In this document: piece by piece, positions 36,866 through 55,347 of the stretch | Layout: every line of letters begins with the position of its first letter | How positions within the stretch are numbered: the first letter of the stretch is position 1 | From: Candidatus Latescibacterota bacterium | GTDB lineage: Bacteria > Latescibacterota > UBA2968 > UBA8231 | NCBI GenBank assembly: GCA_965243025.1 | Contig: CBDETY010000003.1 | Coordinates: forward strand, 4,064,001-4,128,000 | Direction of reading: 5' to 3' | Length of the DNA: 64,000 nucleotides | Made by a program: the position numbers and the translations under genes | Notes under the pieces: generated by a model | Seen by the model: the letters and a program-made list of their open reading frames with translations, nothing else | Told to the model about the DNA's origin: nothing | Database searches by the model: none

Positions 36866-36941
36866 AGCTAACGTTTTCTCGCCCTTGAATCGCGAAGCGG
36901 TCTGGCGAAGATCCGAATGGGGCAAGGTCATGGTGTTAATC
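36866..36941. repeat. attC-like site
   Basis: AGCTAACGTT ... ATCGCGAAGCGGT ... GGCGAAG ... GTTAATC. Confidence 0.7.
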
Positions 36942-36989
36942 ATGTGTTGGAGCACTGGGCGGTCAGGTGGGAATCCTCGTCGCCGATCA

Positions 36990-37412
36990 TCAATCATTCC
37001 CCTGGCGCGTACTCCGATAGCCAGTTCCCGGGTAACGCCCAGCCAAATCGGCACTCTCCGTGTCTGAAAGCATTTCCGTGTCGGCCAGAGGAACTTCTTC
37101 AACAAGCTGCACCTTGAGTACTCTCATAGTCTTCCAGTGGGTGCGATCGGTACCCTGTCGTTCTTCGAGGTCCTGATCGTCGAGAGGTTCTGCGACAACG
37201 TAAAGAAATCCAGGGATCTTCCCATCGTGGCGAACCGCCGTGAAGTCGTCGTCAGAGACAGTTATGCGAGTTGGCCTGTGCGAAAAGGCTCTTGCGAGCT
37301 CCCTGAACGGAGTAACCCAGCTACCGGGCAGAAGAGTATCCAGTTCTTCGGGCGACCCGTGAAACCAGGGTCTATGTCTTGATGCGTCCCAAACGCTCAT
37401 GGGCTGGGTCAT
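36990..37412 (-). CDS. Hypothetical protein (WFHGS motif, possibly ART-like)
   Basis: WFHGSPEEL..GSWVTP..LARAFS, GFLYVV. Confidence 0.6.
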   Translation of the reverse strand: MTQPMSVWDASRHRPWFHGSPEELDTLLPGSWVTPFRELARAFSHRPTRITVSDDDFTAVRHDGKIPGFLYVVAEPLDDQDLEERQGTDRTHWKTMRVLKVQLVEEVPLADTEMLSDTESADLAGRYPGTGYRSTRQGND

Positions 37413-37604
37413 GACTCCTTCATCGCCCCAAATTCACCTGACCTTCTACGAATTGCGGACCTGCGAAGCAGGTTGCCGAAGGACAAGGCGCCCCCTGGGC
37501 GATGCACAAGCCGATCAGTCATCGGCTGAGGGCTTCTATCAAGACTCTTTACCCCACCCGAACAGGACACGGGCTTTTTTCGCCGCGTGGAGTCATTCTC
37601 ATAA

Positions 37605-38309
37605 TCATGTCAGGTGATAATCCACACCATACTGGATCAAGCCTAAGCGTCGAGCCAATCCCTGGGAAGCCAGATTTTCCCACGATGTACTGTAAAGCGG
37701 GACGAGGTCAAGTTCACGCACTGCAAGGGCCCACGCAGCGACAGCTGATACAGCGTAACCCCGCTGGCGGTAGATCTCCAGCGTATCAACTCCTGCCTCA
37801 TGCGCCCTCCATGATGAGCGGACACTTTGGCAAATCGACACGGCTTGGGAATCCTGGACAACCGCCAACCAGGGCCATCCACTATCCAATTCCGGCACCA
37901 TCTTGGCAAAGTTCCCCCTCAGAAGCCCTGCGTTTTCGACTGATAGCCGAACAACATTTGCTGGCGGATCGAGGCAATCCGGAAAGCGGTAAGCGGGCCC
38001 TCCCCACACCCGTTCAACCGGGGCATGGCCATGGAGGATGTCCTGGAATTGGCTGTGACCTCTTGGGAATTTCCGGGAATCCATAAGCACCGGCTCGGCG
38101 GCGGCAGCTTCCTTCAGGGAAGTAACCAAATTTTCAGGAAGGTCATTTCGGAATAGGCATATCGAACCTTCCCTGGTTCGCCCGAAGAAGAAACGGGGAG
38201 CTGGACCAGGATCCCCACCAGGATCGTTTATCCCTCGAAGACGCCCATTTCCTTCAGACGTGAACAGCGCCTCAACGTGTATTTCCATCAGTTCCCTATC
38301 TGACACCAT
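37605..38309 (-). CDS. GNAT acetyltransferase (GNAT_2-like)
   Basis: EAGVDT..YRQRGYA, LYSTSWENLASQ.LA.RLG. Confidence 0.88.
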   Translation of the reverse strand: MVSDRELMEIHVEALFTSEGNGRLRGINDPGGDPGPAPRFFFGRTREGSICLFRNDLPENLVTSLKEAAAAEPVLMDSRKFPRGHSQFQDILHGHAPVERVWGGPAYRFPDCLDPPANVVRLSVENAGLLRGNFAKMVPELDSGWPWLAVVQDSQAVSICQSVRSSWRAHEAGVDTLEIYRQRGYAVSAVAAWALAVRELDLVPLYSTSWENLASQGLARRLGLIQYGVDYHLT

Positions 38310-38338
38310 GCTCCATTACCGATCCAGTCATCCATACC

Positions 38339-38423
38339 GCCCAACGTTTTCGCCGTGTCCGAACCGCCACAGCAGTTGCGCCAAGGTGCGACAGCCCTAA
38401 ACCCGGGCAGGACAGTGTTATGT
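38339..38423. repeat. attC-like site
   Basis: GCCCAACGTT...GTGTCCG / CGGGCAG...GTTATGT; stop codon of adjacent gene lies in the box. Confidence 0.8.
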
Positions 38424-39146
38424 GCTGTGGGCAAATCTCTTTGCAAACTCCCTCAAGATATCTTTGAGCAATTCTTCATTCCCAACCCAAATCTGATGAT
38501 CGGCGGTCTCAAGAAACTCCATCTGTGCGTTCGGCAACAGCTGAGCAATTTGCTCGACCGGCCAACTCGGCCTGATATCCTGTTTGCCATAAACGAAAAG
38601 TGCAGGTACGGTCAATGATGCCAGGTCCCGAAACAGCGTTGGGTGTTTGATATATTCTTTCCAAGACCTGCCGACCTGCGTGTTCATCTCCATATTTGGG
38701 GGATATGCCAGCTCTGGTGGTGCCTCAAGCCCCTGATCGCGCCGCTCGCTGTAAATTCGGTGCCAGTCCCGGTCGTTGTGTACCCGACCTCCTGAAAGAC
38801 AAATGAAGCCATGCACATGCTCGGAAAATCGCATCGAATAGGCCAACGACAAGTCCGCCCCAAATGAGTGACCAACCATGATCCACCGATCGACACCATA
38901 GTGATGTCGAATGGCGTGCAAGTCCTCAAGGCAGGTTTCAAGTGTATACGTCCTCATCTTGTCAGACCGGCCACATCCTCTGTGATCGAAGCGAATCACT
39001 TTGCACAGATCATCGAGCATTCCTGCGAGGGGTCCAAGATAGTCGCAGCAGCCAGAACCACCACTGCACAGCACCAACGGCACACCTCTCCCCTGCGCTA
39101 TTGTCCACAGGCGGAAATCTCCAACTTCAACGAACGACTCAGTCAT
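38418..39146 (-). CDS. Alpha/beta hydrolase
   Basis: FDHRGCGRS, GHSFG, YGKQD, ADHQIW. Confidence 0.88.
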   Translation of the reverse strand: MTESFVEVGDFRLWTIAQGRGVPLVLCSGGSGCCDYLGPLAGMLDDLCKVIRFDHRGCGRSDKMRTYTLETCLEDLHAIRHHYGVDRWIMVGHSFGADLSLAYSMRFSEHVHGFICLSGGRVHNDRDWHRIYSERRDQGLEAPPELAYPPNMEMNTQVGRSWKEYIKHPTLFRDLASLTVPALFVYGKQDIRPSWPVEQIAQLLPNAQMEFLETADHQIWVGNEELLKDILREFAKRFAHST

Positions 39147-39255
39147 TTTGGGGAAACACCTAAATGTCCATTGCAAATACGTCTCTCGAATTCCCGAACC
39201 TCGCAGCGGTGGGCTTAAGCGCTCTTGTCGTCCTCCGAAGGCGGGACTTGCGGAA

Positions 39256-39789
39256 TTAGCGTATCCGACTCACAACGAGCGAATCCAACTTGGATGAACA
39301 CCCCGCACCACCCTCATCGTGCCACACGCGTACTACAAGGTTGTCCTTTAAATGTACCCTTGACTGTTCGCCAGATCTCCCTCGAAGGAGAGTTGCAGCG
39401 CGCTCGGCTGCCTGGGAATCGGAGAATCTGAGTCCAAATATCCCTGCTTCTCCCTCACCGTGGTAAACGGAAAACAGAAACTCCTCCAATTCCGCCAAGA
39501 GTTCTCTCATTGCACTGGACGTCGAACCCTCACCTTCATCCTCGGAGCCTTGATGGCGATGGTGTTGATGAGGGGCCAGCAGCATCCCACCGAAACACTT
39601 CAGATATTCCCGGTCAGAGGTTACAAAGGGATTGCCTGGCGCCCCGCATGGTAACTCCGCGTCAGACGGTACGGCAGCCAATTCACACTCCTGTAAATCG
39701 TCACTCCCAAAAGTCAGCTCGGCTAACTGCATGGGAGAAGAACAGCTTAGGGTTCCACTTGCTATGGCAACCAAGGCTGGAATCTTCAT
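39256..39789 (-). CDS. Hypothetical lipoprotein
   Basis: MKIPALVAIASGTLSC lipobox-like N-terminus. Confidence 0.6.
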   Translation of the reverse strand: MKIPALVAIASGTLSCSSPMQLAELTFGSDDLQECELAAVPSDAELPCGAPGNPFVTSDREYLKCFGGMLLAPHQHHRHQGSEDEGEGSTSSAMRELLAELEEFLFSVYHGEGEAGIFGLRFSDSQAAERAATLLRGRSGEQSRVHLKDNLVVRVWHDEGGAGCSSKLDSLVVSRIR

Positions 39790-39795
39790 GTCCTA

Positions 39796-39861
39796 GTCCG
39801 AACCGCGAATGCAGTGGTGCGAGGGGCGGCAGCGCCGGAGCCGGGTACGGAGGTGTTACCT
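39796..39861. repeat. attC-like site, left end lost
   Basis: GTCCGAACCGCG...CCGGGTAC..GTTACCT. Confidence 0.6.
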
Positions 39862-40035
39862 GCCCGTGGCAGTCTTGATGCCGCGTCGCATTCTCGCGAC
39901 AAAAGCCCAGGGAATTTCCCTGAACTGCGACTTGCCCAGCTCACGTTCCTGCTGTGGCTCGAATACGGGCCCGGCAATACCATCCAGAACCAGACCGGAC
40001 TCGGCGCAGCGCAAAACCCCGAGTTGAGCCGTGAC

Positions 40036-40479
40036 CTACGTCCCCAGCTCTTTGAACAGGAAAAGCTCCCCCAGGTCGTCCTCAAACGGAAAACCTGCCA
40101 GAAACCCGCACTCAGAAAACCCCATGTGTCTATGCCATGTCTGCGGCTGGAACTCATCTACAACACACGAACTCAACAGGAACCTGTGGCCTCGGCGCAA
40201 CAGATTATCTTCTACGAACGCCAACATAGCCTTCCCAACACCTTTTCGCTGGTGCTCACGCAATACGTTGATCAGGCTGACAAATGCGGTGCCGCCGCCA
40301 TGTCCTGGCCACAAAAAGCATAGGTGAAGCATTCCCACGAGTTCACCTTGCAACTCCGCGACGATCACTTCGTTTATGCCGGGGACCTGCTCCGCAAATC
40401 GATTCGAGTCAAATGTGGCAGTCTTTACACACCACTCGACATCCGCCTTGCTGGCAGGTCTCACCAGTATGTCTGCCAT
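40036..40479 (-). CDS. GNAT acetyltransferase
   Basis: HQRKGVG, WHRHMGFSECG. Confidence 0.85.
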   Translation of the reverse strand: MADILVRPASKADVEWCVKTATFDSNRFAEQVPGINEVIVAELQGELVGMLHLCFLWPGHGGGTAFVSLINVLREHQRKGVGKAMLAFVEDNLLRRGHRFLLSSCVVDEFQPQTWHRHMGFSECGFLAGFPFEDDLGELFLFKELGT

Positions 40480-40514
40480 GGTTCCCCGTATTTCGCAGGA
40501 CAATCGAGGCTTTC

Positions 40515-40605
40515 GCTTAACGTCTGTCGATCCACGAATCTCCAAAGCAGGTTGCTCGCAGGACCAAGGCGCGCCCGCGCCGCAGGGAGTATCGAAATGT
40601 TTCCA
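40515..40605. repeat. attC-like site (degenerate)
   Basis: GCTTAACGTC..TCGAT / ATCGA..GTTTCCA. Confidence 0.65.
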
Positions 40606-40616
40606 GGAGTAATCCC

Positions 40617-41249
40617 CTAAGCATCAATTTCGAGAATCATATCCAATGACTCTTTCCCACTACTTGTACAGAACTGTCCAACCTGCCTGAACCCGCACTT
40701 TCGATAAAAGTGAATAGCACGAGCGTTGGAGCGGAATACGCCCCCGAGAAGAATGATCCTTCGTTTTCCAAATCTTCTTGCCAATTCTGCTAATCGTGGA
40801 AACACAGCGCTTCCGATTCCCCGGCTTTGGTACTCATCCGCAAGGCAAGGAGCAAATCGGCAATCGCTTTCACGATTCAGATGGAAGTCGTAGTTCCCAA
40901 ACCGAACAACATCTTCGGCGGTAATATCGAAACTGTATTCCAAGAGTCCAATTATGCAATTAAATTGAGCAAGCACAAACCTGAGTTTGTCGTAACAGCC
41001 GATTGCGGCGCACATATCGGCGGCGCTCTCATCATACCGACATACTTCCCACGTCTCGGGCTTCAAATTCGAAAAAAACGATGCGAGAGAATCCAGATCA
41101 GCGTGTACCAATGGTCGCAGAACGAACGACAGATCAAAGCCTAACCTGATCTCTTCTGAGAATTCCTCAGGATTTCGGGAAATGTCTGAAAGAGTGAGAC
41201 TAAAAACAGAATCCTCAGAGTGGACCCGTTGTTTGTCATACATGGGCAT
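40617..41249 (-). CDS. GNAT acetyltransferase
   Basis: YQSRGIG, N.RAIHFYRKCGF. Confidence 0.85.
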   Translation of the reverse strand: MPMYDKQRVHSEDSVFSLTLSDISRNPEEFSEEIRLGFDLSFVLRPLVHADLDSLASFFSNLKPETWEVCRYDESAADMCAAIGCYDKLRFVLAQFNCIIGLLEYSFDITAEDVVRFGNYDFHLNRESDCRFAPCLADEYQSRGIGSAVFPRLAELARRFGKRRIILLGGVFRSNARAIHFYRKCGFRQVGQFCTSSGKESLDMILEIDA

Positions 41250-41252
41250 TTC

Positions 41253-41347
41253 TGATAACGTTTTATCGGTTTGGAAAGGCCTCTCCCCAAGCGGTGCCCA
41301 AGGCCAAGGCGCCATTGGCGCCGTAGCTGAAAATCGTGCTGTTATTC
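41253..41347. repeat. attC-like site of the cupin cassette type
   Basis: TGATAACGTTTTATCGGTTT...GTTATTCGATGTG; both ends resemble the site at 51282-51378. Confidence 0.75.
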
Positions 41348-41410
41348 GATGTGCTGAAGCGGCAGCCGGGTGTTATGTGACGTGGCCCCGAATGGACGAT
41401 TGGTTCCCGG

Positions 41411-42220
41411 TTATTTGTCAGCGCTCGTGTGTATTTCACAGGCCCTCATGAACCTCGGCACGTCAGCGCAGTTCGTTGACCGACAGTGCATCAGGAGTGG
41501 ATGGCCGATCATGGCGTCACCGGGCTTCCCGGTCAACTCAATGATGCGGACGGGAAATCCATTAACATCAGTCGTTTGATCCATCAACCGGCTGACGCGA
41601 GTAATGGGGTTCTCGCTTGCTTGGGTCAGTTCCATGAGCCATGGATGAGTGCTGAAGAACCTTTTCTTGATTTTCCTGCCGTTCCGGGAAAACAAGCTCT
41701 TCTCTTGCGTACGGTAGAAGTGCCTTATCAACCGATGACTCCCGTCGGCTATGTGCGTTCCACCGCCGTGAGATCGGACCTCGGTAATGAACGAGAAATT
41801 CAAAAGCCCATCAAGCTTTTCTACGTTGCGGAAGCCCGAGTTGTGCCAGTGCCAATTCCGGCTGGCGACATTCCACTGTTCATCGAGGGCTTCGGGAAAC
41901 GAGAACACAAGACTGCCCCAGTCTCGGGGTTTCTCCCAACAACCCTTTTCCAACAGCTGATCAATTGCTGATACGAATTTCGCTGATACTGCATCGCGAA
42001 ATACGCGGGTAGATCGAACCGTACGGCTCAGCCCACCTGTCTGATTACGCTCCCAGGTGGCGAGGTCGTTCCGCATGATACCATGCCGTTCCAACCAACG
42101 CCAGACAATGTCCTCCATCTGCCGGCAGTCCACTGGATCAAATGCACCGGGAAAAATGATGTAGCCATGTGTCTCGAAGTGGTCGAGGTCATCCTGTGAG
42201 AGAACTTTTTCTTCTGCCAT
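41411..42220 (-). CDS. PhyH family dioxygenase
   Basis: FETHGY, WHWH, GGT.IADGSH, GDAMIGHP.LMH. Confidence 0.8.
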   Translation of the reverse strand: MAEEKVLSQDDLDHFETHGYIIFPGAFDPVDCRQMEDIVWRWLERHGIMRNDLATWERNQTGGLSRTVRSTRVFRDAVSAKFVSAIDQLLEKGCWEKPRDWGSLVFSFPEALDEQWNVASRNWHWHNSGFRNVEKLDGLLNFSFITEVRSHGGGTHIADGSHRLIRHFYRTQEKSLFSRNGRKIKKRFFSTHPWLMELTQASENPITRVSRLMDQTTDVNGFPVRIIELTGKPGDAMIGHPLLMHCRSTNCADVPRFMRACEIHTSADK

Positions 42221-42269
42221 TATACTTGGTGGAGGCAAGATTACATCCAGCGGTAGTTATTCCATTTCA

Positions 42270-42356
42270 GGTAAACATTTCGCCGGTTTTCAAATCTGCG
42301 AATCGGGTTGCCGAAGACCATGGAGCGTACCTACGTAGCGCAATTCGCTGTTGGAC
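42270..42356. repeat. attC-like site (degenerate)
   Basis: GGTAAACATTTCGCCGGTTT..GGTTGCCGAAG..CGTAGCGCAA..GTTGGAC. Confidence 0.6.
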
Positions 42357-42382
42357 GACGTGGGGAAAAATTCGTGACAAGG

Positions 42383-42925
42383 CTAGTTCAAAAGTAGTGT
42401 GCCCGGGACTCGAAGAATCTCGCACTTTTTGAACGTACCTTTGTCGTATGTCAATCTTACCCCTTCGCAATAGTTACATGAAGGTCCCCAAGTTTCATGG
42501 TCCGCACCGGGCACGCAACGAACTGCACTGGCTTCGATAAAACCCCCATGAGAAACCAACAGTGCTCGGCCGCCTTCCTGGAGCGACCGGGCTACGTCGA
42601 GGTGGAACTCGGCCAGTTGGTCCGCCAGATTTGCCACAACGCTGCCTGGGTATTGACGGATATAAGAAGAAAAGTCCCCAAATCCTGCGTCGAAGAAAAC
42701 CTCCACATCTTGGGGCATGGAAGCGAGCAGTTCGACCTGTTGGTCGACCGCAAATCCCATGGCAATGCTGGTTTCAAATGCGCGAGGGGCGGTACTCGTG
42801 TAGACCATGTCGAATGCGGTCATCTCCTCTCCAACTCGCCTGGCAAGATTAACCCCGTCTTGAGAAAGATGCTGTCCCGGTTTCCCCCTCATTGAGTGTC
42901 GTCGATGTTCAATGAATCTCCCCAT
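42383..42925 (-). CDS. Histidine phosphatase family protein
   Basis: RRHS, TS...RAFET, LLVSHGG. Confidence 0.8.
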   Translation of the reverse strand: MGRFIEHRRHSMRGKPGQHLSQDGVNLARRVGEEMTAFDMVYTSTAPRAFETSIAMGFAVDQQVELLASMPQDVEVFFDAGFGDFSSYIRQYPGSVVANLADQLAEFHLDVARSLQEGGRALLVSHGGFIEASAVRCVPGADHETWGPSCNYCEGVRLTYDKGTFKKCEILRVPGTLLLN

Positions 42926-42936
42926 TCAGAGTTACC

Positions 42937-43344
42937 TCAGTCGGTTAAATGGTTCTCGTCCATGTCGCCTAACGTCTCCCGGTCTGCGACCCGCGCAGCC
43001 GGTTGCCGAAGGCCAACCGTGACCTTGTCGGCCTTCGCCGCCTCTCCTTGCAAACCTGGCGTATGGAGGACAAAGTGGTAATGGTCCTCGGAACAGGACA
43101 AGAACGTGTGCACCTCCCGCGGTTCGATGATGACGCCCGATTTCTCGGCAAAGTATAACTCCTCACCTTCGACAAGCATTGTGGCGTCGCCCTGCGCAAA
43201 CAGATAGATCTCGGTGGTAGTTTTATGGGAATGGGGTTCATTTATGGCGATGTTCGCATAACCGATCGAAATGTTAAGGTCTGAGTCCCAAGGCCCTACA
43301 AACCAGCCCTTGTCCATGTTTGTATCCGGCTCAATGATTCTCAC
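42937..43344 (-). CDS. Cupin protein, copy 2 (stop lost, reads into half attC)
   Basis: Near-identical to 51390-51725; HSH...TEIY, EP.EVH. Confidence 0.75.
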   Translation of the reverse strand: MRIIEPDTNMDKGWFVGPWDSDLNISIGYANIAINEPHSHKTTTEIYLFAQGDATMLVEGEELYFAEKSGVIIEPREVHTFLSCSEDHYHFVLHTPGLQGEAAKADKVTVGLRQPAARVADRETLGDMDENHLTD

Positions 43345-43373
43345 TAATTTTGCCCTCCAGCTCGTTGCATTTC

Positions 43374-43455
43374 GAATAGGTTTCGCCATGCACCAAGCGG
43401 CGAACCAGTTGGTGAAAACGCGCCAGCGCAAAAGCCGGACACGGACGTGTTATAT
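43374..43455. repeat. attC-like site
   Basis: GAATAGGTTTCGCC...CGGACAC..GTTATAT. Confidence 0.65.
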
Positions 43456-43479
43456 GTCGTGCCTCCGTCGCACCGAGGA

Positions 43480-47693: not shown

Positions 47694-47698
47694 TTTTT

Positions 47699-47792: not shown

Positions 47793-47810
47793 GAAGCGGA
47801 ACTGATCGAA

Positions 47811-48563: not shown

Positions 48564-48617
48564 CAGGAGAGTTTGAATGGATGGCCGACCAGTTGGGCAA
48601 GAGTGCTCTCTGGCACG

Positions 48618-49439
48618 TCACTCTCCATCAGCGTTCGATGGCGACCGATGTTGGGCAAACAGCCAGCCCAGCAACCCTGGGGTATCGAACGCCAGGGGCC
48701 AGACCACATGGCCCGCTTCCGAAAATTCCGTGTATCTCGGGGCACTTCCCACTTCTTGCAGGGCCTTGATCATTGCGCGGGAGTTCGCGACGCGATAGCC
48801 GGTGTCCTTTGCGCCTTGGAAGGACCAGACCGGCACATGCGAAAGAGTAGCCGCCTGTTCGGGCAAGCCCTTCCCACACACTGGAATGGCCGCGGCAAAG
48901 GCGTTGGGCCGTGCAGCCATCAGCTCCCACGTACCTCCGCCCCCCATTGACTGACCCGTCACATAGACACGATCTGGATCGACCGGGAATTCGCTCAGCA
49001 CTTGATCAATGAGACCGAGTACGCGTCCACCCACCCCTTCTGACACGCGCCAGCTCGTCTCTGGGGGGCACTGGGGGACGAGAAGAAAACTGGGATAGGC
49101 CGTGCGGTTGGCCTCAGTGGCGAGAATCTGGGCCGCCCAGCAACCCCGGATCTGTTGCACATTGTCCATGCCCCGGCCTCCGGATCCCGACAGGCAGACA
49201 ACCAGAGGATATGATCTTTGGGGGACGTGATCCAGGGGCTTTAGGAGCCGGTAGAGCAGGGAATCACCCGAGGCAGTACGGTAAGTACGAGGTTCGAATT
49301 GTTGGGCTAATTCGGCAGCGTATTCGCCCCCGGCCTTGTGGCGTTCTTCAGCGGATGGTCCATCGGATGCCCTACCTGAGTGCACGTGCCCGAAGACCAG
49401 GGGCACCGCCAAGATCCCGAGGACATATTTGTTTGTCAT
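48618..49439 (-). CDS. Exported esterase/peptidase (alpha/beta hydrolase)
   Basis: YPLVV.L.G.G.RG, RVYVTGQSMGG, GAKD, GH.VW. Confidence 0.85.
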   Translation of the reverse strand: MTNKYVLGILAVPLVFGHVHSGRASDGPSAEERHKAGGEYAAELAQQFEPRTYRTASGDSLLYRLLKPLDHVPQRSYPLVVCLSGSGGRGMDNVQQIRGCWAAQILATEANRTAYPSFLLVPQCPPETSWRVSEGVGGRVLGLIDQVLSEFPVDPDRVYVTGQSMGGGGTWELMAARPNAFAAAIPVCGKGLPEQAATLSHVPVWSFQGAKDTGYRVANSRAMIKALQEVGSAPRYTEFSEAGHVVWPLAFDTPGLLGWLFAQHRSPSNADGE

Positions 49440-49531
49440 AAGGGATTACAGGACAGTAGCGGGAACTGCAGTGTCTTAATCGTGAGCATTGCACAGTCAA
49501 TCTGAATAGACAGGCTCATTCTTTGCCATGT

Positions 49532-49619
49532 CTATATAGTTCTCGCCGTGCTCAAGCTGACGTAGCCAGTTACGGCGAAGGCGTCTCCGCGCCGTAGCCG
49601 GGCACCGTACGCGTTATAT
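49532..49619. repeat. attC-like site, left box degenerate
   Basis: TCTCGCCGTGCTC..GGCGAAGGCG..CGTAGCCGGGCAC..GTTATAT. Confidence 0.65.
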
Positions 49620-49704
49620 GAAGGCGATGATTTACCCTCTATGTTTCAAGGGCGACCCTTAAGAGAATTCGACCTAACCTCCATCGAATTCTCTGAGATC
49701 GAGT

Positions 49705-50502
49705 CTATTGCTCCCCTTCCTCCCGCTTTAGCATATAGACTGTGAACTCTCCGATTAATCGAAACCCGATATGTGTGGCCAATCGTTCAGATACTGTGTT
49801 TCCTGGCCATGTATGCCAAGTTGGTTCCAATCTTGCGGCGAGACAACCCTCAATGTATGCGGCAGTTACTTGCGTGGCATATCCCTTGCGGCGGAATGGC
49901 TCGCCCGTCCTCAGTTGAGGATCCGCCCAACCTGCGCCGACGAGAGCTGTGAAGCAAAAACTGGCAAGGTTATCCCCCTCAAAGAGGCCGTAGCCCAGAC
50001 CCTCTCTACAGAAATGCTCTACTGAGTCGAAATACCAGAGAATCCCCGACTCCGAATCTTGATCAATTAAGTCGGCAAGTGACTCATTGATGCGCTCTAT
50101 CCTACAACCGGGCGCCAGTTTCGTCGGGGTAGACATCTTTTTGTATGAGTTTTCGTCGAACCGGTAGGATAACATCTGGTATGGCTCGGACGAATCTCTC
50201 ATGAATGTCCTCAGGCGATCCTGCCAATATCCAGCCGTCCCACATAGGTGAAGCACGTCATTGTCGATCTTATCAAACAGTTCTCGCTCCAATTCATCTG
50301 AGAAGGACTCATTTTCACCTCCCACATAGGAGTATCCTGTGGAATGACAGACGACCGTAGCGCGGGGTGCTATTGCGTCGTCAACGAAAATCCTACCGAT
50401 CTGCTTCTGCTCGATCACGCTGTGTGGTAGCGAAGGCCACATTTCGATTCCCTCAAACAGAGGAGCAACCCGCTGAAAATTAGCCGGGGTGAGTTCGATC
50501 AA
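49705..50502 (-). CDS. GNAT acetyltransferase (GNAT_2-like)
   Basis: GLGYG, FRRKGYA, P.W...N..S..LA..IGF. Confidence 0.85.
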   Translation of the reverse strand: MIELTPANFQRVAPLFEGIEMWPSLPHSVIEQKQIGRIFVDDAIAPRATVVCHSTGYSYVGGENESFSDELERELFDKIDNDVLHLCGTAGYWQDRLRTFMRDSSEPYQMLSYRFDENSYKKMSTPTKLAPGCRIERINESLADLIDQDSESGILWYFDSVEHFCREGLGYGLFEGDNLASFCFTALVGAGWADPQLRTGEPFRRKGYATQVTAAYIEGCLAARLEPTWHTWPGNTVSERLATHIGFRLIGEFTVYMLKREEGEQ

Positions 50503-50575
50503 TTTTTTTGCCCGTTAGGGTCAAGGAGGGTAAACGCCGCAGCGGGAATGGACGTGTCAGCAAACCGTTTCAGAT

Positions 50576-51250
50576 TCACCCAATGATAAGCGAATTGGGG
50601 GAAGATGCCGGGAGACCTGCGTCGAACCGCCGATAACCAAACCTCTCAAAGGTCTCTGATTCGTACGCCCAGACAACCTTCTCCTCGTCTTCATTGAAAT
50701 GGTCAAAGAACGTCCCCGGCGGCCGGATTCCTCGCTCAAGTGCACGTGGGTACTCCGGCGCGTCGTCGCTGACGAATGGCAACTCTTTGAGGCACTGCGG
50801 AAGACGCTCGTATAATAGCACCTGTGTTACACCTGCGGCCTTGCAATAATACCACTGATTCATCACACTCTCTGGGCAATCGCCACCCCCAAGTTGTGTC
50901 CCGTCCTTCTCAAGCGTGTAGCCCCGAATCCGTTCCTCCAGGGACTCCGGGTGCTCCTTCGGAAGCTCGACTTGCTCTCTCAGACTTTCGTGTGGCTCAC
51001 GGTCTCCCAAGCTTTCGTATTTCCCTTTTCCCCCCCAAGGAATAGCGAACGCTCCACTCGTGTGCCGGTCATAGGGATTCCGAACGATGGTGAAGATCAG
51101 GTAACCTCTAGCCTCTTCCGGAACGACCATGTCGTGGTGCCCCCCCACGGTTTGCCCCTGGTAGTGAGTGCAGAGCCAACGAATCATCGACTTCGAACTG
51201 GTCCTGGGGATGCCGATGTAGGCATATCTGAGGAAATGAGAAAGGACCAT
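50576..51250 (-). CDS. Sulfotransferase-like protein
   Basis: IPRTSSKS, FTIVRNPYDR, FERFGY. Confidence 0.7.
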   Translation of the reverse strand: MVLSHFLRYAYIGIPRTSSKSMIRWLCTHYQGQTVGGHHDMVVPEEARGYLIFTIVRNPYDRHTSGAFAIPWGGKGKYESLGDREPHESLREQVELPKEHPESLEERIRGYTLEKDGTQLGGGDCPESVMNQWYYCKAAGVTQVLLYERLPQCLKELPFVSDDAPEYPRALERGIRPPGTFFDHFNEDEEKVVWAYESETFERFGYRRFDAGLPASSPNSLIIG

Positions 51251-51281
51251 ATATCGCCTCCACTGCCAATGCTTGAATGTC

Positions 51282-51378
51282 TGCTGCCGTTTATCGGTTT
51301 GCGGACCCCGAGTTTGGCGAGGGGTTGCCGAAGGCCAAAGCCCCAAAAGCCCCGCAGAGCAGCACCGTGATGTTATTC
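51282..51378. repeat. attC-like site
   Basis: CGTTTATCGGTTTGCGG..GGTTGCCGAAGGCC..CCGCAG..GTTATTC. Confidence 0.75.
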
Positions 51379-51389
51379 GATGTGATCAA

Positions 51390-51725
51390 TCACGCAACCC
51401 TGACTTTGTCGTTAACCGCTGCCTCTCCCTGCAAACCTGGCGTATGGATGACAAAGTGGTAATGGTCCTCGGAACAATACAAGAACGTGTGCACCTCTCC
51501 AGGTTCGATGATGACGCCAGATTTCTCGGCAAAGCTAAACTCCTCGCCATCGACAAGCATCGTGATGTGGCCGTGCGCAAACAAATAGATTTCGGTGGTA
51601 GACCTGTGATAATGGGGTTCGTTTATGGCGGTGTTTGCATATCCGATTGAAATGTTCAGATCTGAGTCCCAAGGTCCAACAAACCAGCCCTTTTCCATTT
51701 TATTATCCGGCTCAATGATTCTCAC
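51390..51725 (-). CDS. Cupin protein, copy 1
   Basis: HYH...TEIY and EPGEVH cupin motifs. Confidence 0.8.
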   Translation of the reverse strand: MRIIEPDNKMEKGWFVGPWDSDLNISIGYANTAINEPHYHRSTTEIYLFAHGHITMLVDGEEFSFAEKSGVIIEPGEVHTFLYCSEDHYHFVIHTPGLQGEAAVNDKVRVA

Positions 51726-51754
51726 TTGCTTTGGCCTCCAGCTCGTTGCATTTC

Positions 51755-51833
51755 GAATAACGTTTCAGTGCCCCGCATCGCGAAGCGGTTGGGCGAAGGG
51801 CCGAATGGCCCAAGCCGGGGCACCATGTTAGAG
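51755..51833. repeat. attC-like site
   Basis: GAATAACGTTTCA GTGCCCCG ... CGGGGCAC CAT GTTAGAG; TAA of adjacent gene inside the box. Confidence 0.9.
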
Positions 51834-52406
51834 GACGTGGCTTCCCTCAACGCTCGCTGGAAATCGTCTATCGGACTCGTTCGCATGAGATGCAAGCCAG
51901 GCCTTCTTTGTCAGTAAGAACTGACGTGCTGCTTCCCCCTTGAACTTGGAACTATTGTAGACAAACCCTTCAGTCTCCTGAAAGCCGTTTTTTTCGAGGA
52001 CACGGGCTGATCCAGGATTTCGCCTTAAGCAGGCGGAGCGAACGGTTTCCATTCCGAGCTCGAGGAAGGCATACCGTAGTGCCAAAGAAACGGCCTTGGT
52101 TGTAATTCCCTTTCCCCAGTAGGCCGAGGCAATGGCGTAATCGCATTGGATGCTACCGCTCTCCAAATCACTTCCCCCTAATTCAACGACTCCTATCATC
52201 TCTCCGTCGGCAACGATGGCAAAGAAGAAACCCGCTCCGTTTCGGCGGGCATCAACGGCCTGTTCCACAAACCTTGCAGCGCCATCCTCTGGATAGGGCT
52301 CGGGAATCGTAGTGGTTCGTGCTACCCGCTCATCAGAGGCGTAACGTTGGACCGCCGGTTCGTCGCCAATCCGCAGTGGCCGGATTGTAACCTTTAGTTC
52401 TGTCAT
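51828..52406 (-). CDS. GNAT N-acetyltransferase (RimJ/RimL type)
   Basis: IPEPYP, YWGKGIT, NPGSARVLEKNGF. Confidence 0.9.
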   Translation of the reverse strand: MTELKVTIRPLRIGDEPAVQRYASDERVARTTTIPEPYPEDGAARFVEQAVDARRNGAGFFFAIVADGEMIGVVELGGSDLESGSIQCDYAIASAYWGKGITTKAVSLALRYAFLELGMETVRSACLRRNPGSARVLEKNGFQETEGFVYNSSKFKGEAARQFLLTKKAWLASHANESDRRFPASVEGSHVL

Positions 52407-53143
52407 CGTCTCCTTCCCATGTCCTCTAACTGATTGCCATTCACGAAGCCGCGTAGCGGCTGTCGAGGGATCTTACACTGGGCCTCAAGGTGGCGAAGAT
52501 CGTCCTGATCCAGACTGCAATCGTTGCTGTGGACGTACGAATCCAGATCCATTAGAATCAATCGATGAAAACGAGCATCCAGTGCTCTCAATCCCCACTC
52601 TCCGGCCTCTATCTTGGTGCAGAGACGGCGTTCCGCCAAGGTAAATGCAACGCGGCAAAACATCAGCGCAGGATTCTTGAAGTGGGTCCGTATCTGCGGA
52701 ACAACGTGCCGAATGCACTGCCGCAGTAAAGGCCACGGAACGCGTTTCAGAATCCTGTTGTGAGGTGTACCGAGAAGATCCCTCCCTGATTCAAAAATAT
52801 CTTGCCTCAACAAGAGAAAATCTTTGCTACCATCAGGCTTGAGGACAATTGTATTGTTCATCTTGAGAAGGAAATCAACAGGAGTGGGGAAAACGTCGGC
52901 GTTGATATGGTCTATCGTTGCTGCTGTTATGTCGTAAGACAGAGACTGTGATTTTACGTGTTCCAGGAGATGCACCCTTTTCTCCGACGGAGTGGGACGC
53001 TTCGTGACAAGAAGAAGGTCAACATCACTCGTCTCAGGATTGCCAGACTCCCGAGCGCGTGAGCCACCCATCCAAACCGATTCCAGTTCTCCTTCGTAAA
53101 TCTCACCGAGTCCCTCCACAAAGCCATCTATTGCACTTCTCAT
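52403..53143 (-). CDS. Nucleotidyltransferase resembling aminoglycoside adenylyltransferase (DUF4111) family; C-terminus altered
   Basis: GGS....G...SDVDLL, L.FCR......LCTK.EAG.W; final codons derive from a half attC. Confidence 0.7.
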   Translation of the reverse strand: MRSAIDGFVEGLGEIYEGELESVWMGGSRARESGNPETSDVDLLLVTKRPTPSEKRVHLLEHVKSQSLSYDITAATIDHINADVFPTPVDFLLKMNNTIVLKPDGSKDFLLLRQDIFESGRDLLGTPHNRILKRVPWPLLRQCIRHVVPQIRTHFKNPALMFCRVAFTLAERRLCTKIEAGEWGLRALDARFHRLILMDLDSYVHSNDCSLDQDDLRHLEAQCKIPRQPLRGFVNGNQLEDMGRRR

Positions 53144-53257
53144 GGCAAGAATTACCGGGGAGAAATGAATCGGGCTCCTGTCCGACCTCTATCTAACATC
53201 GAGGAAGCATATCCTGGAGTGATGTCAATATGGCCAGCTTCACTTATATGCGATGAC

Positions 53258-53339
53258 ACCTAACGTTTCAGTGCCGCCGAACCGCGCAGCGGTTGGGCGA
53301 AGGGGCTCTTGTCCCGAAGCCGGGGGCACGGTGTTACAT
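53258..53339. repeat. attC-like site
   Basis: ACCTAACGTTTCA GTGCCGCCG .. ACCGCGCAGCGGT TGGGCGAAG .. CGGGGGCAC GGT GTTACAT. Confidence 0.9.
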
Positions 53340-53376
53340 GAAGTGCGCTGATACCCTGCGATATCGGATCCGATGC

Positions 53377-53958
53377 TTAACCGCTTCCTATGCCTGAAAC
53401 AACGACGCAAACAGCACTGGCAGTGTCGATATGGGTCAGATAGTAGTCTTCCGCTGCCCTCCATCTCCGAATCCATTCGTCTGTGTTTTCACCTCGCTTG
53501 ACCAGCCTATCCAAACATTCGGCCTTGGGAGTGTCGACGAAAATGGAGAAGCCATAGAAGTTCCTCAATTCCGGCCGATAAGAATAGACCCCATCGATCA
53601 GTATGATGCCCTCAGCCGGTTGGTCAATCCACTCCGCCAGCTGGTTGATCCCCCAATCATAGCGCTGGTAGCGAGTTCGATCTCCACCCGATAAAGGTTT
53701 AAGGAGTTCACTTCGCATCCTTACCCAATCAAAATACCTCATGTAACCATCTTCAGGCGTTAGAGCCCTTCTCTCAGACTCCCCCATTGGAGTATAGAAG
53801 TCATCCCCGTGAACGATTGAGATGAGATTACATGTCTCGCTTAGTTTCCTGGCGATGGTTGACTTTCCAGCTCCGCCGGGACCATCGAGTGCGACTACGA
53901 GAAGGCTATTCGAGCCCAATTCCGAGACAAGCCGCGATGAGAGAACATTAACGTCCAT
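53377..53958 (-). CDS. Uridine kinase-like P-loop protein
   Basis: VALDGPGGAGKST, HGDDFY, YQRYDW, LIDGVYS. Confidence 0.88.
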   Translation of the reverse strand: MDVNVLSSRLVSELGSNSLLVVALDGPGGAGKSTIARKLSETCNLISIVHGDDFYTPMGESERRALTPEDGYMRYFDWVRMRSELLKPLSGGDRTRYQRYDWGINQLAEWIDQPAEGIILIDGVYSYRPELRNFYGFSIFVDTPKAECLDRLVKRGENTDEWIRRWRAAEDYYLTHIDTASAVCVVVSGIGSG

Positions 53959-53998
53959 GTCGTGTCAGCGTCTATTGCAGATGTCGATCAAGCATTTC

Positions 53999-54083
53999 AT
54001 ATATCGTTCCGGGCGGGCTGCGAACCCGCGCAGCGGGTTGGTGCGAAGGCCAATGGCCGGTCCGCAGCCCGGCGTAGTATGCG
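53999..54083. repeat. attC-like site with ATC core
   Basis: ATATATCGTT..CGGGCTGCG / CGCAGCCCG perfect arms; internal CCCGCGCAGCGGG hairpin. Confidence 0.8.
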
Positions 54084-54108
54084 GCGTTTCTCACGCCCTT
54101 TTTACCCC

Positions 54109-54474
54109 TCAACGAATACTTGAGGCACAATCCAAAAAGGTCTCTGCATCCAAATCGAAACTGGGAGTATGGAGGAGGAGTAGAGTCGCGTCTTCATCGG
54201 ATGAATTCTCGTATGAAAAACTTTGACCTTGCTGGACGAGACAAAAGTCGGCGCCTTCGAGCCGATACTCCTTCCCCTCTATCGTGAAGAGGACTATTCC
54301 ATTCAAAACGTAGTAGTACTTGTCAGAGCGCTCCGACCTTGCCTTCCGATGACCTCTGCCAGGACCAACTTTTATTTTGGCAAGCGAGGAACTGATATTC
54401 ACACCTGAGGTGTAGTCGAATATCTGAAGGCCTTCGAATTCAATCGGAGCTACCGCCGAAGAGTTCACTACCAT
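54109..54474 (-). CDS. Cupin domain protein
   Basis: YYYVLNG...F.IEG..Y.L..ADF. Confidence 0.75.
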   Translation of the reverse strand: MVVNSSAVAPIEFEGLQIFDYTSGVNISSSLAKIKVGPGRGHRKARSERSDKYYYVLNGIVLFTIEGKEYRLEGADFCLVQQGQSFSYENSSDEDATLLLLHTPSFDLDAETFLDCASSIR

Positions 54475-54540
54475 TTGTGGGTCCTTGATGGCACTGGGGT
54501 TGGAATTTCAGAAGTCCTTAGAGGACGTAAATTAAATGCC

Positions 54541-54630
54541 GTATAACGTCTCACAATTCACGGAGTCGCGAATGCGACTTGCCGCAGCCCCAGCGCCGAG
54601 AGGCGCGTAGCGGGAATTGCTGTGTTATAT
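54541..54630. repeat. attC-like site
   Basis: GTATAACGTCTCA CAATTCACG ... CGGGAATTG CTGT GTTATAT. Confidence 0.88.
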
Positions 54631-54643
54631 GAAGTGGAGGACA

Positions 54644-55219
54644 TCACTTGCGTTCAGCCATTCGATCGAAGGCATTCGGACGGCTTCGGGTGTTCCAAGC
54701 ATCGACTACAGCTGCTGCGATAGCTTCGCTCGGCTGCGTCGAGTCGACCTCCAGATCGTACTCGATGAAACTGTGAACTATGTGAAAGTCCGCTCTGGCT
54801 TCTCCAGGTCCCCGGTCTCCTCTGGTGCGCTCCCTTCGCTCTAGCTCTGAGAGCGGACAGTGCACCCCGACGACGAAAACATCAAAAGCGGAAAGAAGAT
54901 CTAACAAATCTGACAACCACTCCTCGGTCTCGACTATGTGGTCAACGATGAGATTGTTGCCTGCACCGGCCAAAACCGGAAGACAACGGTGAAACCCATC
55001 GAATACCGCTGGCCGCATGGCTGGCCAATCGAGTTCACGATTGAGTATTCGGGACCATGGCAGAGCGTTGGAATCACGCAGATGGTCAAACGAAAAATGC
55101 CAAAAAGGAACTTCCAAGGTTTGCTGGAGGAGACGTGCGAGCGTCGACTTTCCTGCACTTGATGCGCCGTTTATGAGAATGATCTTGCCCTGGTCTCGAT
55201 CGTTATCCAAGTGTATCAA
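54644..55219 (-). CDS. Chloramphenicol phosphotransferase-like (CPT) kinase
   Basis: IILINGASSAGKST, GNNLIVD, VGVHCP..ELERRE..RGDR, YDLEVDS. Confidence 0.88.
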   Translation of the reverse strand: MIHLDNDRDQGKIILINGASSAGKSTLARLLQQTLEVPFWHFSFDHLRDSNALPWSRILNRELDWPAMRPAVFDGFHRCLPVLAGAGNNLIVDHIVETEEWLSDLLDLLSAFDVFVVGVHCPLSELERRERTRGDRGPGEARADFHIVHSFIEYDLEVDSTQPSEAIAAAVVDAWNTRSRPNAFDRMAERK

Positions 55220-55248
55220 GAATCCTGTTCAGCTTTTTAACTCATGTC

Positions 55249-55347
55249 ATATAACGTTACGCCGGTTTGCGAACGCCGAGTCAGTCGAGGCGTTGCCGAA
55301 GGCCAAGACGCCCGAAGGGCGGCGCAGCGCAAAACGTGCTGATATTT
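55249..55347. repeat. attC-like site with GAT right box
   Basis: ATATAACGTTACGCC GGTTTGCG ... CGCAAAAC GTGCT GATATTT. Confidence 0.85.

Follow-up and report, generated by a model that had tools for sequence, protein, structure and literature searches.

An integron cassette consists of an open reading frame (ORF) and a downstream attC site; crossover takes place in the R′ box (G/TT, top strand), and the flanks of the circular form are complementary. Recombination uses only the folded bottom strand of attC and is resolved by replication. The integrase has an IntI-specific additional domain (I2 helix) around patch III, and attI adjoins its divergently transcribed gene. The attC site carries the inverted core boxes R″/R′ (RYYYAAC / GTTRRRY), and on each arm its central spacer leaves five to six bases unpaired. 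Clusters of attC sites lacking an integron integrase are termed CALINs in the IntegronFinder definition. The dif-type core is short and double-stranded, with two arms of about 11 bp around a central region of 6–8 bp.

On the R″–L″ arm of the attC bottom strand, the accessible portions of PMC5027507 and PMC2727003 describe two to three extrahelical bases, including a G in L″ and a T 6–8 nt further, with a 6-bp stem between them. The I2 insertion is held to have turned a Xer-like enzyme into an integrase handling folded attC, and no intermediates between Xer-like enzymes and IntI are known according to the available part of PMC7790495. Detection tools, as described in excerpts of PMC8352920 and 10.1101/2022.02.06.479319, define integrons by this insertion, so arrays served by an enzyme without it would be labelled integrase-less. 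A literature search found no paper describing an integron-like array with an insert-less integrase. The sites described here are probably attC analogues of an integron-like gene-capture system, whose recombinase would be the closest kin of integron integrases but without their specific insertion, the I2 helix or 'additional domain'.

attC-Like Sites of the Array

The window, a stretch of 64,000 nt from a Candidatus Latescibacterota bacterium (contig CBDETY010000003.1), contains approximately 21 attC-like sites between positions 36868 and 55348, all on the plus strand and interleaved with cassette ORFs on the minus strand. The sites open with TAAC and a 6–7 nt spacer; the outer stem then encloses a GNA-capped hairpin, a GA-rich linker and a second hairpin, and is followed by a 3–4 nt spacer and GTTA. 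A first-pass annotation had placed attC-like sites in this region and taken the plus strand for the bottom strand of the cassettes. The orientation of the ORFs agrees with the latter, and the former is confirmed by an nhmmer sequence profile from 11 hand-picked sites, which matched the plus strand only (36865–55349), and by R2, a covariance model built on relatives' sites and used to scan the entire window with filters off. All 16 R2 matches at E ≤ 0.12 lie on the plus strand at 36868–55348, and the only two others in the window, at 78–138 and 349–432, have E-values of 0.39 and 0.75. Rfam gave no match anywhere in the window. The sites are as follows:

36868–36942, +, attC-like site with TAAC/GTTA boxes intact and stems eroded (R2 52.0 bits; weak fold, −5.5 kcal/mol)
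37432–37520, +, degenerate attC-like site, TGAC for TAAC, without GTTA (nhmmer 37440–37501, E 1.8e-4; sequence reading)
38341–38424, +, attC-like site, CAAC/GTTA (R2 39.2 bits)
39176–39268, +, possible eroded site remnant, on weak evidence (R1 8.1 bits, E 8.2; sequence reading)
39785–39862, +, attC-like site, 5′ box mutated to TCAT (R2 31.1 bits)
40517–40606, +, attC-like site, TAAC/GTTT (R2 20.0 bits; nhmmer 46.8 bits)
41255–41348, +, attC-like site (R2 27.1 bits)
41349–41378, +, 3′ fragment of another site, directly after the preceding one (boundary comparison)
42274–42350, +, eroded site, AAAC ... GTTG (nhmmer E 0.009; sequence reading)
42969–43034, +, 5′ half of a site, truncated at about 43013 (R2 15.7 bits; repeat D1 begins at 43014)
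43376–43456, +, attC-like site, eroded in its 5′ part (R2 22.7 bits)
45401–45479, +, attC-like site, boxes mutated to TAAT/GTCA (R2 58.2 bits)
45549–45632, +, attC-like site, TAAC/GTTG (R2 41.3 bits)
47701–47793, +, attC-like site, boxes mutated to TGAT/GTCA (R2 51.0 bits)
49534–49620, +, attC-like site, 5′ box mutated to TATA (R2 31.6 bits)
51288–51381, +, attC-like site, 5′ end disrupted by GAAT and an insertion (nhmmer 48.7 bits; no R2 match at E ≤ 1)
51757–51834, +, best-preserved site type: TAAC, 6 nt, 8-bp stem, GAA-loop hairpin, linker, hairpin 2, stem, 3 nt, GTTA (R2 81.0 bits; fold −18.4 versus −17.6 kcal/mol); marks the left end of a cassette common to locus L031
52426–52500, +, 5′ box (TCTAAC, 52425–52430) and GCCGC-GTA-GCGGC hairpin of a site (sequence reading); overlaps the 3′ end of the AadA-like ORF, and L031 homology ends just past its TAAC
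53260–53340, +, attC-like site, well preserved (R2 90.1 bits)
54001–54083, +, attC-like site, boxes mutated to TATC/AGTA (R2 33.3 bits)
54543–54631, +, attC-like site, boxes intact (R2 41.6 bits)
55251–55348, +, attC-like site nearest the platform, TAAC/GATA (R2 15.4 bits; nhmmer 48.3 bits)

Predicted Fold and Geometry

A structural alignment, which the first-pass annotation had proposed as a check, was made on 77 sites, 12 from the window and 65 from relatives (11 related loci), and its compensatory changes support the fold. Changes on both sides are seen in 19 of the 21 modelled pairs, with 89.8% of cells paired. The alignments behind these counts had been fitted to the model, which biases them towards the structure; none of 500 shuffles reached the observed values, and slid controls reached at most 49.9% paired. 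The inverted core boxes pair as well (94.8% of R-box pairs paired). The predicted fold, which this covariation supports, comprises a short R box, a lopsided internal loop, a stem of 8–11 bp, often with one bulged 3′ base, and a conserved three-way junction with the GNA-capped hairpin, beginning about 9 bp above the loop.

Sequence elements picked out in the initial reading recur across the 77 sites. The AACGTY start is reflected in a 5′ spacer beginning GTT or GTC in 72 sites, the loops of the first hairpin include GAA (22 sites), GAAT (9), GCA (7), GTA (4) and GGA (2), and the linkers are conserved, the commonest being TTGCCGAAG (10 sites), TTGGGCGAA (8) and TTGCGCGAA (8). Besides structure, recent common ancestry or the binding of a protein could account for the conserved sequence of the linker and hairpin 1. 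The branched form and GNA hairpin highlighted at the outset are indeed present, but a branched end and a bottom-strand GAA loop are already described for canonical attC in the accessible part of PMC2727003. The longer left spacer also proved general: spacer pairs of 6/3 (26 sites), 7/4 (18), 6/4 (13) and 7/3 (9) make up 66 of the 77, with 6–7 nt on the 5′ side versus 3–4 nt on the 3′ side in place of the canonical 5–6 nt per arm. The 5′ arm is longer overall by 3–4 nt in 61 of 77 sites and, with its 6–7 nt spacer, is presumably the cleaved arm.

Two extrahelical bases 6 bp apart were not found, nor was a second bulge, in a crude test for which 44 of the 77 sites were evaluable and 33 were not. 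In 20 of these 44 sites the stem could be extended by 2 bp if one base bulges from the 3′ arm (CG/CG in 14, CA/TG in 4 and GC/GC in 2), and in one site with a 5′ bulge. The earlier remark that outer stems show no obvious extrahelical base is true of most window sites; across the family, the possible 3′ bulge means that the sites are not wholly free of such bases. The suspected departure from canonical attC geometry stands, there being neither two bulges 6 bp apart nor 5–6 nt spacers on each arm. As a control, the blaGES-1 attC of a class 3 integron was folded with the same script, which returned spacers of 6/5 and, on the 3′ arm, two bulges of 1 nt separated by 6 bp. No R2 match was obtained in the blaGES-1 attC record or in the canonical-IntI loci.

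Folding of both strands, likewise proposed beforehand, gave the site strand as the more stable in 62 of 77 sites, with a mean gain of 1.25 kcal/mol. The energy gap between the two strands is small. The trinucleotide GAA occurs 216 times in the sites versus 70 for TTC, exceeding it in 67 of 77, and the arrangement TAACGT...GTGTTA, present in 47 of 77, permits two G·T pairs on this strand only. It is plausible that strand choice would rely on determinants other than those of the IntI type.

Cassettes and Crossover

The cassette genes are as follows, each identified from the ORF list and a Pfam scan:

36990–56163, −, approximately 23 cassette ORFs
52403–53143, −, AadA-like nucleotidyltransferase
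54644–55219, −, CPT-like ORF
55375–56163, −, PhzF-like ORF

Their products include GNAT acetyltransferases, cupins, hydrolases, histidine phosphatases, NUDIX and HAD proteins, an S41 peptidase and a P-loop kinase. Complementarity between the 4 nt preceding TAAC in site k+1 and the 4 nt following GTTA in site k averages 3.03 of 4 positions and is perfect in 29 of 61 cases; as controls, the two flanks of one site average 1.95 and randomly paired flanks 1.81. Where six shared cassettes were compared, the right end is the next site's TAAC box in all six, and the left end is a TAAC box, site included, in three. Cassettes are units of ORF and site in which crossover takes place at the 5′ end of the site strand, within the TAAC box; as in integrons, that strand corresponds to the cassette's bottom strand. 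Genomes G056 and G012, from different families, have four common cassettes at 92–98% identity in changed order, and their recombinase genes are 74% identical. Relatives have a complete platform, with cassettes reshuffled and common to different bacterial families. Intergenic structured repeats with no role in recombination, such as REP-like elements or terminators, would share with these sites the form of GC-rich hairpins downstream of ORFs, however the cassette boundaries at TAAC boxes, the complementary flanks across ORFs and the identical cassettes in different order among genomes contradict this explanation and leave it scarcely credible.

The attI-Like Platform and Its Recombinase

Two features adjoin the array:

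56187–56221, +, attI-like site, mutated (motif once per platform in 8/8 loci)
56324–56905, +, IntI-related recombinase pseudogene (tblastn; blastn; Pfam; TIGR02249)

In relatives, a conserved attI-like TAAC-N6-palindrome lies 214 nt upstream of the recombinase start codon, and homology between platforms stops exactly at its TAAC. The window copy reads TATATC where relatives have TAAC, followed by TGATTG and the palindrome CATCCGAAC-N5-GTTCGGATA; the attI-like site contains a 9-bp inverted repeat. The pseudogene keeps only residues ~9–70 and 210–289 of an intact relative (tblastn) and matches only SAM_4 positions 1–33, Phage_integrase 106–170 and TIGR02249 238–315. The window array is a dead, eroding copy: its recombinase gene has lost 388 nt between 56595 and 56598 (blastn versus L029, 16007–16406 and 16795–17088), its attI-like core is mutated, and both core boxes (TAAC and GTTA) are intact in 5 of 12 sites versus 54 of 65 in relatives. 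All statements on activity therefore rest on the relatives.

The first-pass annotation had envisaged a recombinase without the IntI-specific insertion, which describes the intact relatives but not the window gene, itself a pseudogene with an internal deletion. Compared with canonical IntI of the same bacterial family, the intact proteins lack 25 + 6 + 10 = 41 aa and keep R144, K169, H234, R237, H260 and Y269 (alignment A5). VchIntIA residues 179–237 have only a 17-aa counterpart in the short recombinase, whose structure model passes from helix H180-193 to H211-225 with none between them. Among solved structures, VchIntIA 2a3v gives the best match by sequence (158.9 bits, two stretches) and likewise by fold (E 1.1e-15), with XerA second by both measures. 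Short recombinases score 206–241 bits against TIGR02249 in two-stretch matches, under the cut-off of 265; for the two close-group proteins scanned, this model (231–241 bits) exceeds those of XerA (214–216) and XerD (179–181), and more distant members score as highly with the XerA model as with that for integrons. Four of the eight close-group genes are intact, the others being broken by one deletion, one stop codon and two frameshifts. A quick tree joins a well-supported IntI clade and the insertion-less enzymes in an unresolved fork, far from XerD.

All 51 R1 matches fall in 11 loci beside a short recombinase, with none in four canonical-IntI loci. All 12 genomes in which R2 sites number 10 or more have a short-type gene or remnant; these genomes are kin rather than independent samples, and their counts are lower bounds from 76 candidates scored in each. 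G025 and G030 have two-part TIGR02249 matches and no R2 site among the 76 candidates scored per genome. Canonical TAAC/GTTA cores, cassette organisation and crossover position, together with canonical IntI genes in 11 of 61 genomes of the same bacterial family, would suit divergent ordinary attC sites on which canonical IntI acts in trans, the adjoining short recombinase being unrelated. However, nine of those 11 genomes have no R2 site among the 76 candidates scored in each, and the remaining two possess a short-type gene or remnant as well; seven relatives with a close-group gene have arrays and no canonical IntI above the cut-off; and in eight loci the short gene keeps one orientation and a constant distance relative to both the attI-like site and the array. 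With the canonical extrahelical pattern and 5–6 nt spacers also missing, action in trans is very unlikely.

It is also conceivable that the sites recombine as double-stranded DNA by a Xer-like two-strand exchange (dif/pdif-like), the hairpins being incidental or serving, for example, termination. The recombinase lacks I2, held in the available portion of PMC7790495 to underlie single-strand attC processing, its distant members match the XerA model as well as the integron model, the attI-like site has its inverted repeat, and sequence blocks within the sites are conserved. Set against this, three helices keep structure over sequence, with compensatory changes in most pairs, several features are strongly strand-asymmetric, and crossover takes place at one extremity of an 80-nt palindrome, with no 28–30 bp two-arm core around it; cassette boundaries are ends of such palindromes, only AACGTT being palindromic at the crossover. 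The xxxxTAAC / GTTAyyyy complementarity, selected across the whole site, makes sense only if the ends pair. Double-strand exchange is accordingly considered unlikely.

Proposed Mechanism and Significance

Under the favoured reading of the sites as attC analogues, the GA-rich site strand would fold as single-stranded DNA and serve as substrate, and the strand would be identified by spacer asymmetry, bulge and junction order, which may replace the two extrahelical bases read by IntI through I2. Indirect signs of recombination through the folded bottom strand are the strand asymmetries and the position of the crossover in the 5′ box of the site strand. The shortness of the 3′ spacer may, in addition, prevent a second strand exchange. 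Hairpin cassette recombination could then proceed without I2, the two extrahelical bases giving way in this lineage to one bulge, a fixed three-way junction and a lopsided spacer (about 5–7 nt on the cleaved arm, 1–4 opposite), which would mark the strand and block second exchange; this tentative model may well prove wrong. If true, insertion-less enzymes would belong to the stock from which IntI arose, the 'missing intermediates'. Complete platforms, intact recombinases in half of the close group, recent shuffling and measurable site geometry make this a testable case for strand choice and one-strand exchange without I2, and supply a concrete enzyme and site set. Cassette genes may move unseen more widely, including resistance-like acetyltransferases, nucleotidyltransferases and phosphotransferases.

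Comparison with Known Systems

With Xer systems (XerC/D and archaeal XerA; dif and pdif modules), this recombinase shares a plain catalytic domain without I2. Unlike their 28-bp two-arm cores, the sites here are folded palindromes of ~80 nt with crossover at one end, and each module is a one-ORF cassette within a long array. Like CALINs, the window array and further arrays of the same genome (3.03–3.07 Mb and 5.716 Mb) lack a functional integrase in their vicinity; unlike in CALINs, the cognate recombinase family can be named, although the IntI-specific profile of such tools would reject it, as judged from excerpts of PMC8352920 and 10.1101/2022.02.06.479319.

Integrons, above all sedentary chromosomal ones such as the Vibrio cholerae array with VchIntIA, share with this system a tyrosine recombinase divergent from a one-ORF cassette array and next to the insertion site, cassettes ending in an imperfect palindrome with ...TAAC / GTTA... 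cores, crossover in the core adjoining the next cassette, complementary circular-form flanks, and a more stable bottom strand with a GAA-type loop; branched terminal structures occur in VCR sites too, according to the accessible part of PMC2727003. Integrons differ in the 41-aa IntI-specific segment of the integrase, in having 5–6 nt spacers on each arm rather than 6–7/3–4 nt, and in an extrahelical pair 6 bp apart, whereas the sites here have no more than a single bulge, located 2 bp above the loop, a conserved three-way junction ~9 bp above it, and a partner attI-like site with a 9-bp inverted repeat.

Detection and genomic setting of the sites

Branched attC-like sites had been placed on the + strand of the window by the first-pass annotation, and this observation is confirmed. 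A sequence profile of 11 sites has matches only on the + strand within 36865-55349, and a scan of the window with covariance model R1, built from two window sites, gives the same picture. Model R2, built from 36 sites, mostly those of relatives, and run without filters across the full 64 kb, returned 16 matches at E ≤ 0.12, every one on the + strand within 36868-55348, the only remaining matches having E values of 0.39 and 0.75; the total reaches about 21 sites when weaker remnants recognised by eye are included. No Rfam family matches the window. From 11 sites aligned with plain MAFFT, RNAalifold derived no useful consensus, and a hand-written structure and covariance models were adopted in place of such a consensus.

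The G+C content drops from 0.62-0.72 in the flanks to 0.52-0.61 in window ~16-56 kb. Nearly all of the longest ORFs listed between 36.9 and 56.2 kb lie on the minus strand, and the window ORFs are separated by imperfect palindromes of 75-100 nt that read alike on the + strand. Pfam matches of the cassette ORFs comprise GNAT acetyltransferases, cupins, alpha/beta and HAD hydrolases, histidine phosphatases, NUDIX, an S41 peptidase, an AadA-like nucleotidyltransferase, a chloramphenicol-phosphotransferase-like kinase and a PhzF-like protein, which is cargo typical of cassettes. The AadA-like, the chloramphenicol-phosphotransferase-like and several GNAT ORFs may be called resistance-like by family only:

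52403-53143: AadA-like nucleotidyltransferase (Pfam)
54644-55219: chloramphenicol-phosphotransferase-like kinase (Pfam)

Left of the array, window 16000-36800 is also low in G+C (0.56-0.61), and parts of it are syntenic at 84-90% with regions past the arrays of two same-genus genomes. The filter-free R2 scan of the whole window detected no sites between 16 and 36.8 kb. This region may represent either an earlier section of the array that has eroded completely or an island of its own.

Anatomy and predicted fold

Structure counts refer to 77 sites, drawn from the window and 11 related loci. Read from the 5' end on the site strand, xxxxTAAC is followed by a pyrimidine-rich spacer of 6-7 nt and an outer stem of 8-9 bp, which runs directly into hairpin 1. 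A GA-rich linker leads to hairpin 2; past some 5 unpaired bases (GAAGC) the outer stem is completed by its second arm, and the site closes with a spacer of 3-4 nt and GTTAyyyy. The AACGTY start described previously holds generally, the 5' spacer opening with GTT or GTC in 72/77 sites, and the 3' spacer ends in GT in 48/77. Hairpin 1 typically has the form AACCGC-GAA-GCGGTT, and the GNA-type caps attributed to it recur in the set (loops GAA in 22 sites, GAAT in 9, GCA in 7, GTA in 4 and GGA in 2; n = 77). The commonest linkers are TTGCCGAAG (10 sites), TTGGGCGAA (8) and TTGCGCGAA (8), and in predicted folds a linker of the TTGCCGAAGGCCAA class is able to form a GCC-GAA-GGC mini-hairpin of its own.

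In a structural alignment of the 77 sites, 89.8% of cells are paired, with changes on both sides in 19 of the 21 modelled pairs (301 cells), and the 36-site set gives 92.3% paired and both-side changes in 15/21 pairs, figures that lean towards structure, since each alignment had been fitted to that model and comes from related genomes. None of 500 shuffles reached the observed pairing values, and sliding the structure by 1-3 columns leaves no more than 49.9% of cells paired.

Spacer asymmetry, strand asymmetry and extrahelical bases

The left spacer had been described as the longer one, and this extends to the relatives: spacer lengths are 6/3 in 26 sites, 7/4 in 18, 6/4 in 13 and 7/3 in 9, together 66/77. 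Spacer and stem taken together, the 5' arm exceeds the 3' arm by 3 or 4 nt in 61/77 sites. The site nearest the platform of related locus L029 (14747-14833) is a natural exception to this asymmetry, its 7/7 spacers being perfectly complementary and its hairpin paired throughout from TAAC to GTTA.

The site strand is predicted to be stabler than its complement in 62/77 sites, by a mean of 1.25 kcal/mol. GAA occurs 216 times on this strand and TTC 70 times, GAA exceeding TTC in 67/77 sites. The combination TAACGT...GTGTTA, found in 47/77 sites, would give two extra G.T pairs on the site strand only.

Canonical attC sites, as described in passages of PMC5027507 and PMC2727003, carry an extrahelical G in L'' and, 6-8 nt beyond it, an extrahelical T, with a 6-bp stem between them, and spacers of five to six bases per arm. 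On folding, this pair of extrahelical bases and these spacers were absent from the 77 sites, bulges being evaluable in 44. The earlier claim of no obvious extrahelical base stands for most window sites but less so for the relatives, which often allow one bulge on the 3' side: there the two final bases of the 5' spacer frequently pair with positions 2-3 of the 3' one, bulging a single A, T or C of the 3' arm. By a crude 6-mer test, for which 44/77 sites were evaluable and the other 33 were not, a one-base 3' bulge is present in 20/44 (CG/CG in 14, CA/TG in 4, GC/GC in 2), and a 5' bulge in 1. As a stand-in for a canonical control from within the family, the blaGES-1 attC carried by a class 3 integron plasmid was put through the same folding script, which returned spacers of 6/5 and, on the bottom strand's 3' arm, a pair of single-base bulges 6 bp apart.

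R2 had no match in the class 3 integron plasmid, nor in four loci that neighbour canonical IntI genes, and a naive scan of those four loci for AAC...GTT hairpins yielded mostly noise. One example, L038 11642-11756, which neighbours a canonical IntI from the same bacterial family, has a canonical look, with single-base bulges 6 bp apart on its 3' arm.

Cassette organisation

The 4 nt preceding TAAC complement the 4 nt following the GTTA of the previous site, across the intervening ORF, at a mean of 3.03 of 4 positions, with 29/61 perfect; baselines are 1.95 for a site's own flanks and 1.81 for random pairs. Such complementarity is the classical hallmark of circular cassettes that open inside the core. 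The cassette beside the attI-like site of L029 follows the same rule (GTTAtggg ... cccaTAAC).

Homology comparison shows that the same cassettes recur in other genomes and other contexts. Window 51759-52431 matches related locus L031 at 87%, and window 44264-45407 and 41372-42285 match two cassettes lying side by side in L024. Two genomes of different families, G056 and G012, have four common cassettes at 92-98% identity in changed order; their recombinase genes share 74% identity. In 6/6 comparisons of shared cassettes, homology ends on the right at the following site's TAAC box; on the left it ends at a TAAC box, site included, in 3/6, the other three involving collapsed or eroded sites. These ends define the unit as an ORF plus its downstream site, with crossover in the site strand's 5' box. 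Tyrosine recombinases have an established cleavage polarity, and a 5'-box crossover with this usual polarity would make the + strand hairpin the substrate. The sites are cassette recombination sites.

A cupin cassette is duplicated in the window (43014-43378 and 51395-51759, 85-86% identity), and its 43-kb copy abuts a half-site, suggesting deletion through the hairpin. At the collapsed sites of L030 (~11640-11665) and L024 (near 8885), the TAAC box and spacer are almost directly joined to the (G)TTA box; the former resembles the 5' portion of the attI-like site (TAACTGCTT).

An insertion-less recombinase

The recombinase was expected to lack the IntI-specific insertion, which proved correct for the relatives, where 25+6+10 = 41 aa are missing relative to canonical IntI of the same bacterial family; the window gene is a remnant with an internal deletion. 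The window ORF matches only the first 33 positions of the Pfam SAM-like domain and positions 106-170 of the catalytic domain, and of the integron-integrase model it matches 238-315 only:

56324-56905, + strand: recombinase remnant lacking 388 nt, between 56595 and 56598, compared with a relative's intact gene

Directly past this remnant lie two PhyH-family dioxygenase paralogues (56910-57788 and 57965-58846, DNA ~70% identical), both of which also occur in L024.

ORFs of the relatives, about 290 aa long, fit the integron-integrase model over two separate parts, positions 1-180 and 235-315. In the alignment the 41-aa gap coincides with the segment carrying the IntI-specific motif, and all six catalytic residues are retained. 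VchIntIA is the best solved relative by sequence (158.9 bits), VchIntIA residues 179-237 being matched by just 17 residues of the short protein, and again the best fold match (Foldseek E 1.1e-15; model mean pLDDT 77), followed by XerA. For the two close-group proteins scanned with NCBIfam, the integron model ranks first (231-241 bits, cut-off 265), the XerA model scoring 214-216 and XerD 179-181 bits; for two more distant insertion-less members the XerA model ranks first.

A quick tree of 34 rows groups the canonical IntI proteins as a single clade with support 100. That clade meets the insertion-less proteins at an unresolved fork, and both lie at a great distance from E. coli XerD and from the Xer-like protein of the genome itself; this tree does not separate IntI as sister to the insertion-less family from IntI nested within it. 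The wider family is very large (7748/8000 scored candidates at E ≤ 1e-30), and its members, where named, are called XerD or tyrosine recombinase, and integron integrase once. Among the matches listed, relatives of the short recombinase span many phyla at identities of at most 53%. A second, remoter insertion-less group (50-56% identical) has sites of the same family downstream of the gene, and its cassettes are co-oriented with the recombinase gene, recalling the 'inverted' integron layout:

L031 16203-19505: sites of the remoter group
L032 16479-18812: sites of the remoter group
L034 89-3776: sites of the remoter group

Platform, association with the enzyme and state of the window copy

About 214 nt upstream of the gene, 8/8 close-group loci carry an attI-like site, in which TAAC is followed after 6 nt by a 9-bp inverted repeat; its arms are 5 nt apart and covary between loci. 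Platform-to-platform homology stops exactly at its TAAC, and homology ending at the insertion site is the behaviour expected of an attI.

Across 15 loci, 51/51 R1 matches come from the 11 with an adjacent short recombinase and 0 from the four canonical-IntI loci. Among 61 genomes, 12/12 of those with at least 10 R2 sites carry a short-type gene or remnant, site counts being lower bounds and related genomes not independent. Canonical IntI scores above cut-off in 11 genomes, of which 9 are without R2 sites and the other two (G010 and G023) also carry a short-type gene or remnant; none was found above cut-off in the 7 relatives with a close-group gene. Two genomes, G025 and G030, have two-part integron-integrase matches yet no R2 sites, which speaks against a simple gene-site rule.

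Close-group genes are intact in 4/8 loci (L024, L026, L027 and L029) and broken in the window (deletion), L028 (stop codon), and L025 and L030 (frameshifts). The attI-like TAAC is replaced by TATATC in the window and L025. Both core boxes are intact in 5/12 window sites vs 54/65 sites of relatives, and several window sites are halves or fragments. The recombinase gene deletion and mutated attI-like core thus mark the window array as a fossil; this copy is dead, and the biology of interest lies in the relatives. R2 detects further sites in the window's own genome (G000:C3, some at 73-87 bits):

3028993-3072730: 6 sites
5715865-5716790: 2 sites
6351877-6351998: 1 site

No intact copy of the short recombinase was found in this genome, and these are therefore orphan arrays.

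Comparison with known systems

A branched terminal structure and a bottom-strand GAA loop are already known for attC (in passages of PMC2727003). Portions of PMC7790495 regard I2 as the basis of attC processing, with intermediates lacking, and integron searches, as outlined in parts of PMC8352920 and 10.1101/2022.02.06.479319, demand the IntI-specific domain. In the full-text literature, supplementary files aside, no account was found of insertion-less integron-like systems or of branched three-way attC sites. The interpretation in the first-pass annotation, that strand choice may rely on other determinants matching a recombinase without the insertion, is partly supported overall. The system departs from integrons in three of the features that define them, namely the IntI-specific domain, the pair of extrahelical bases and symmetric 5-6 nt spacers, but is integron-like in its layout, cassette structure, core boxes and crossover.
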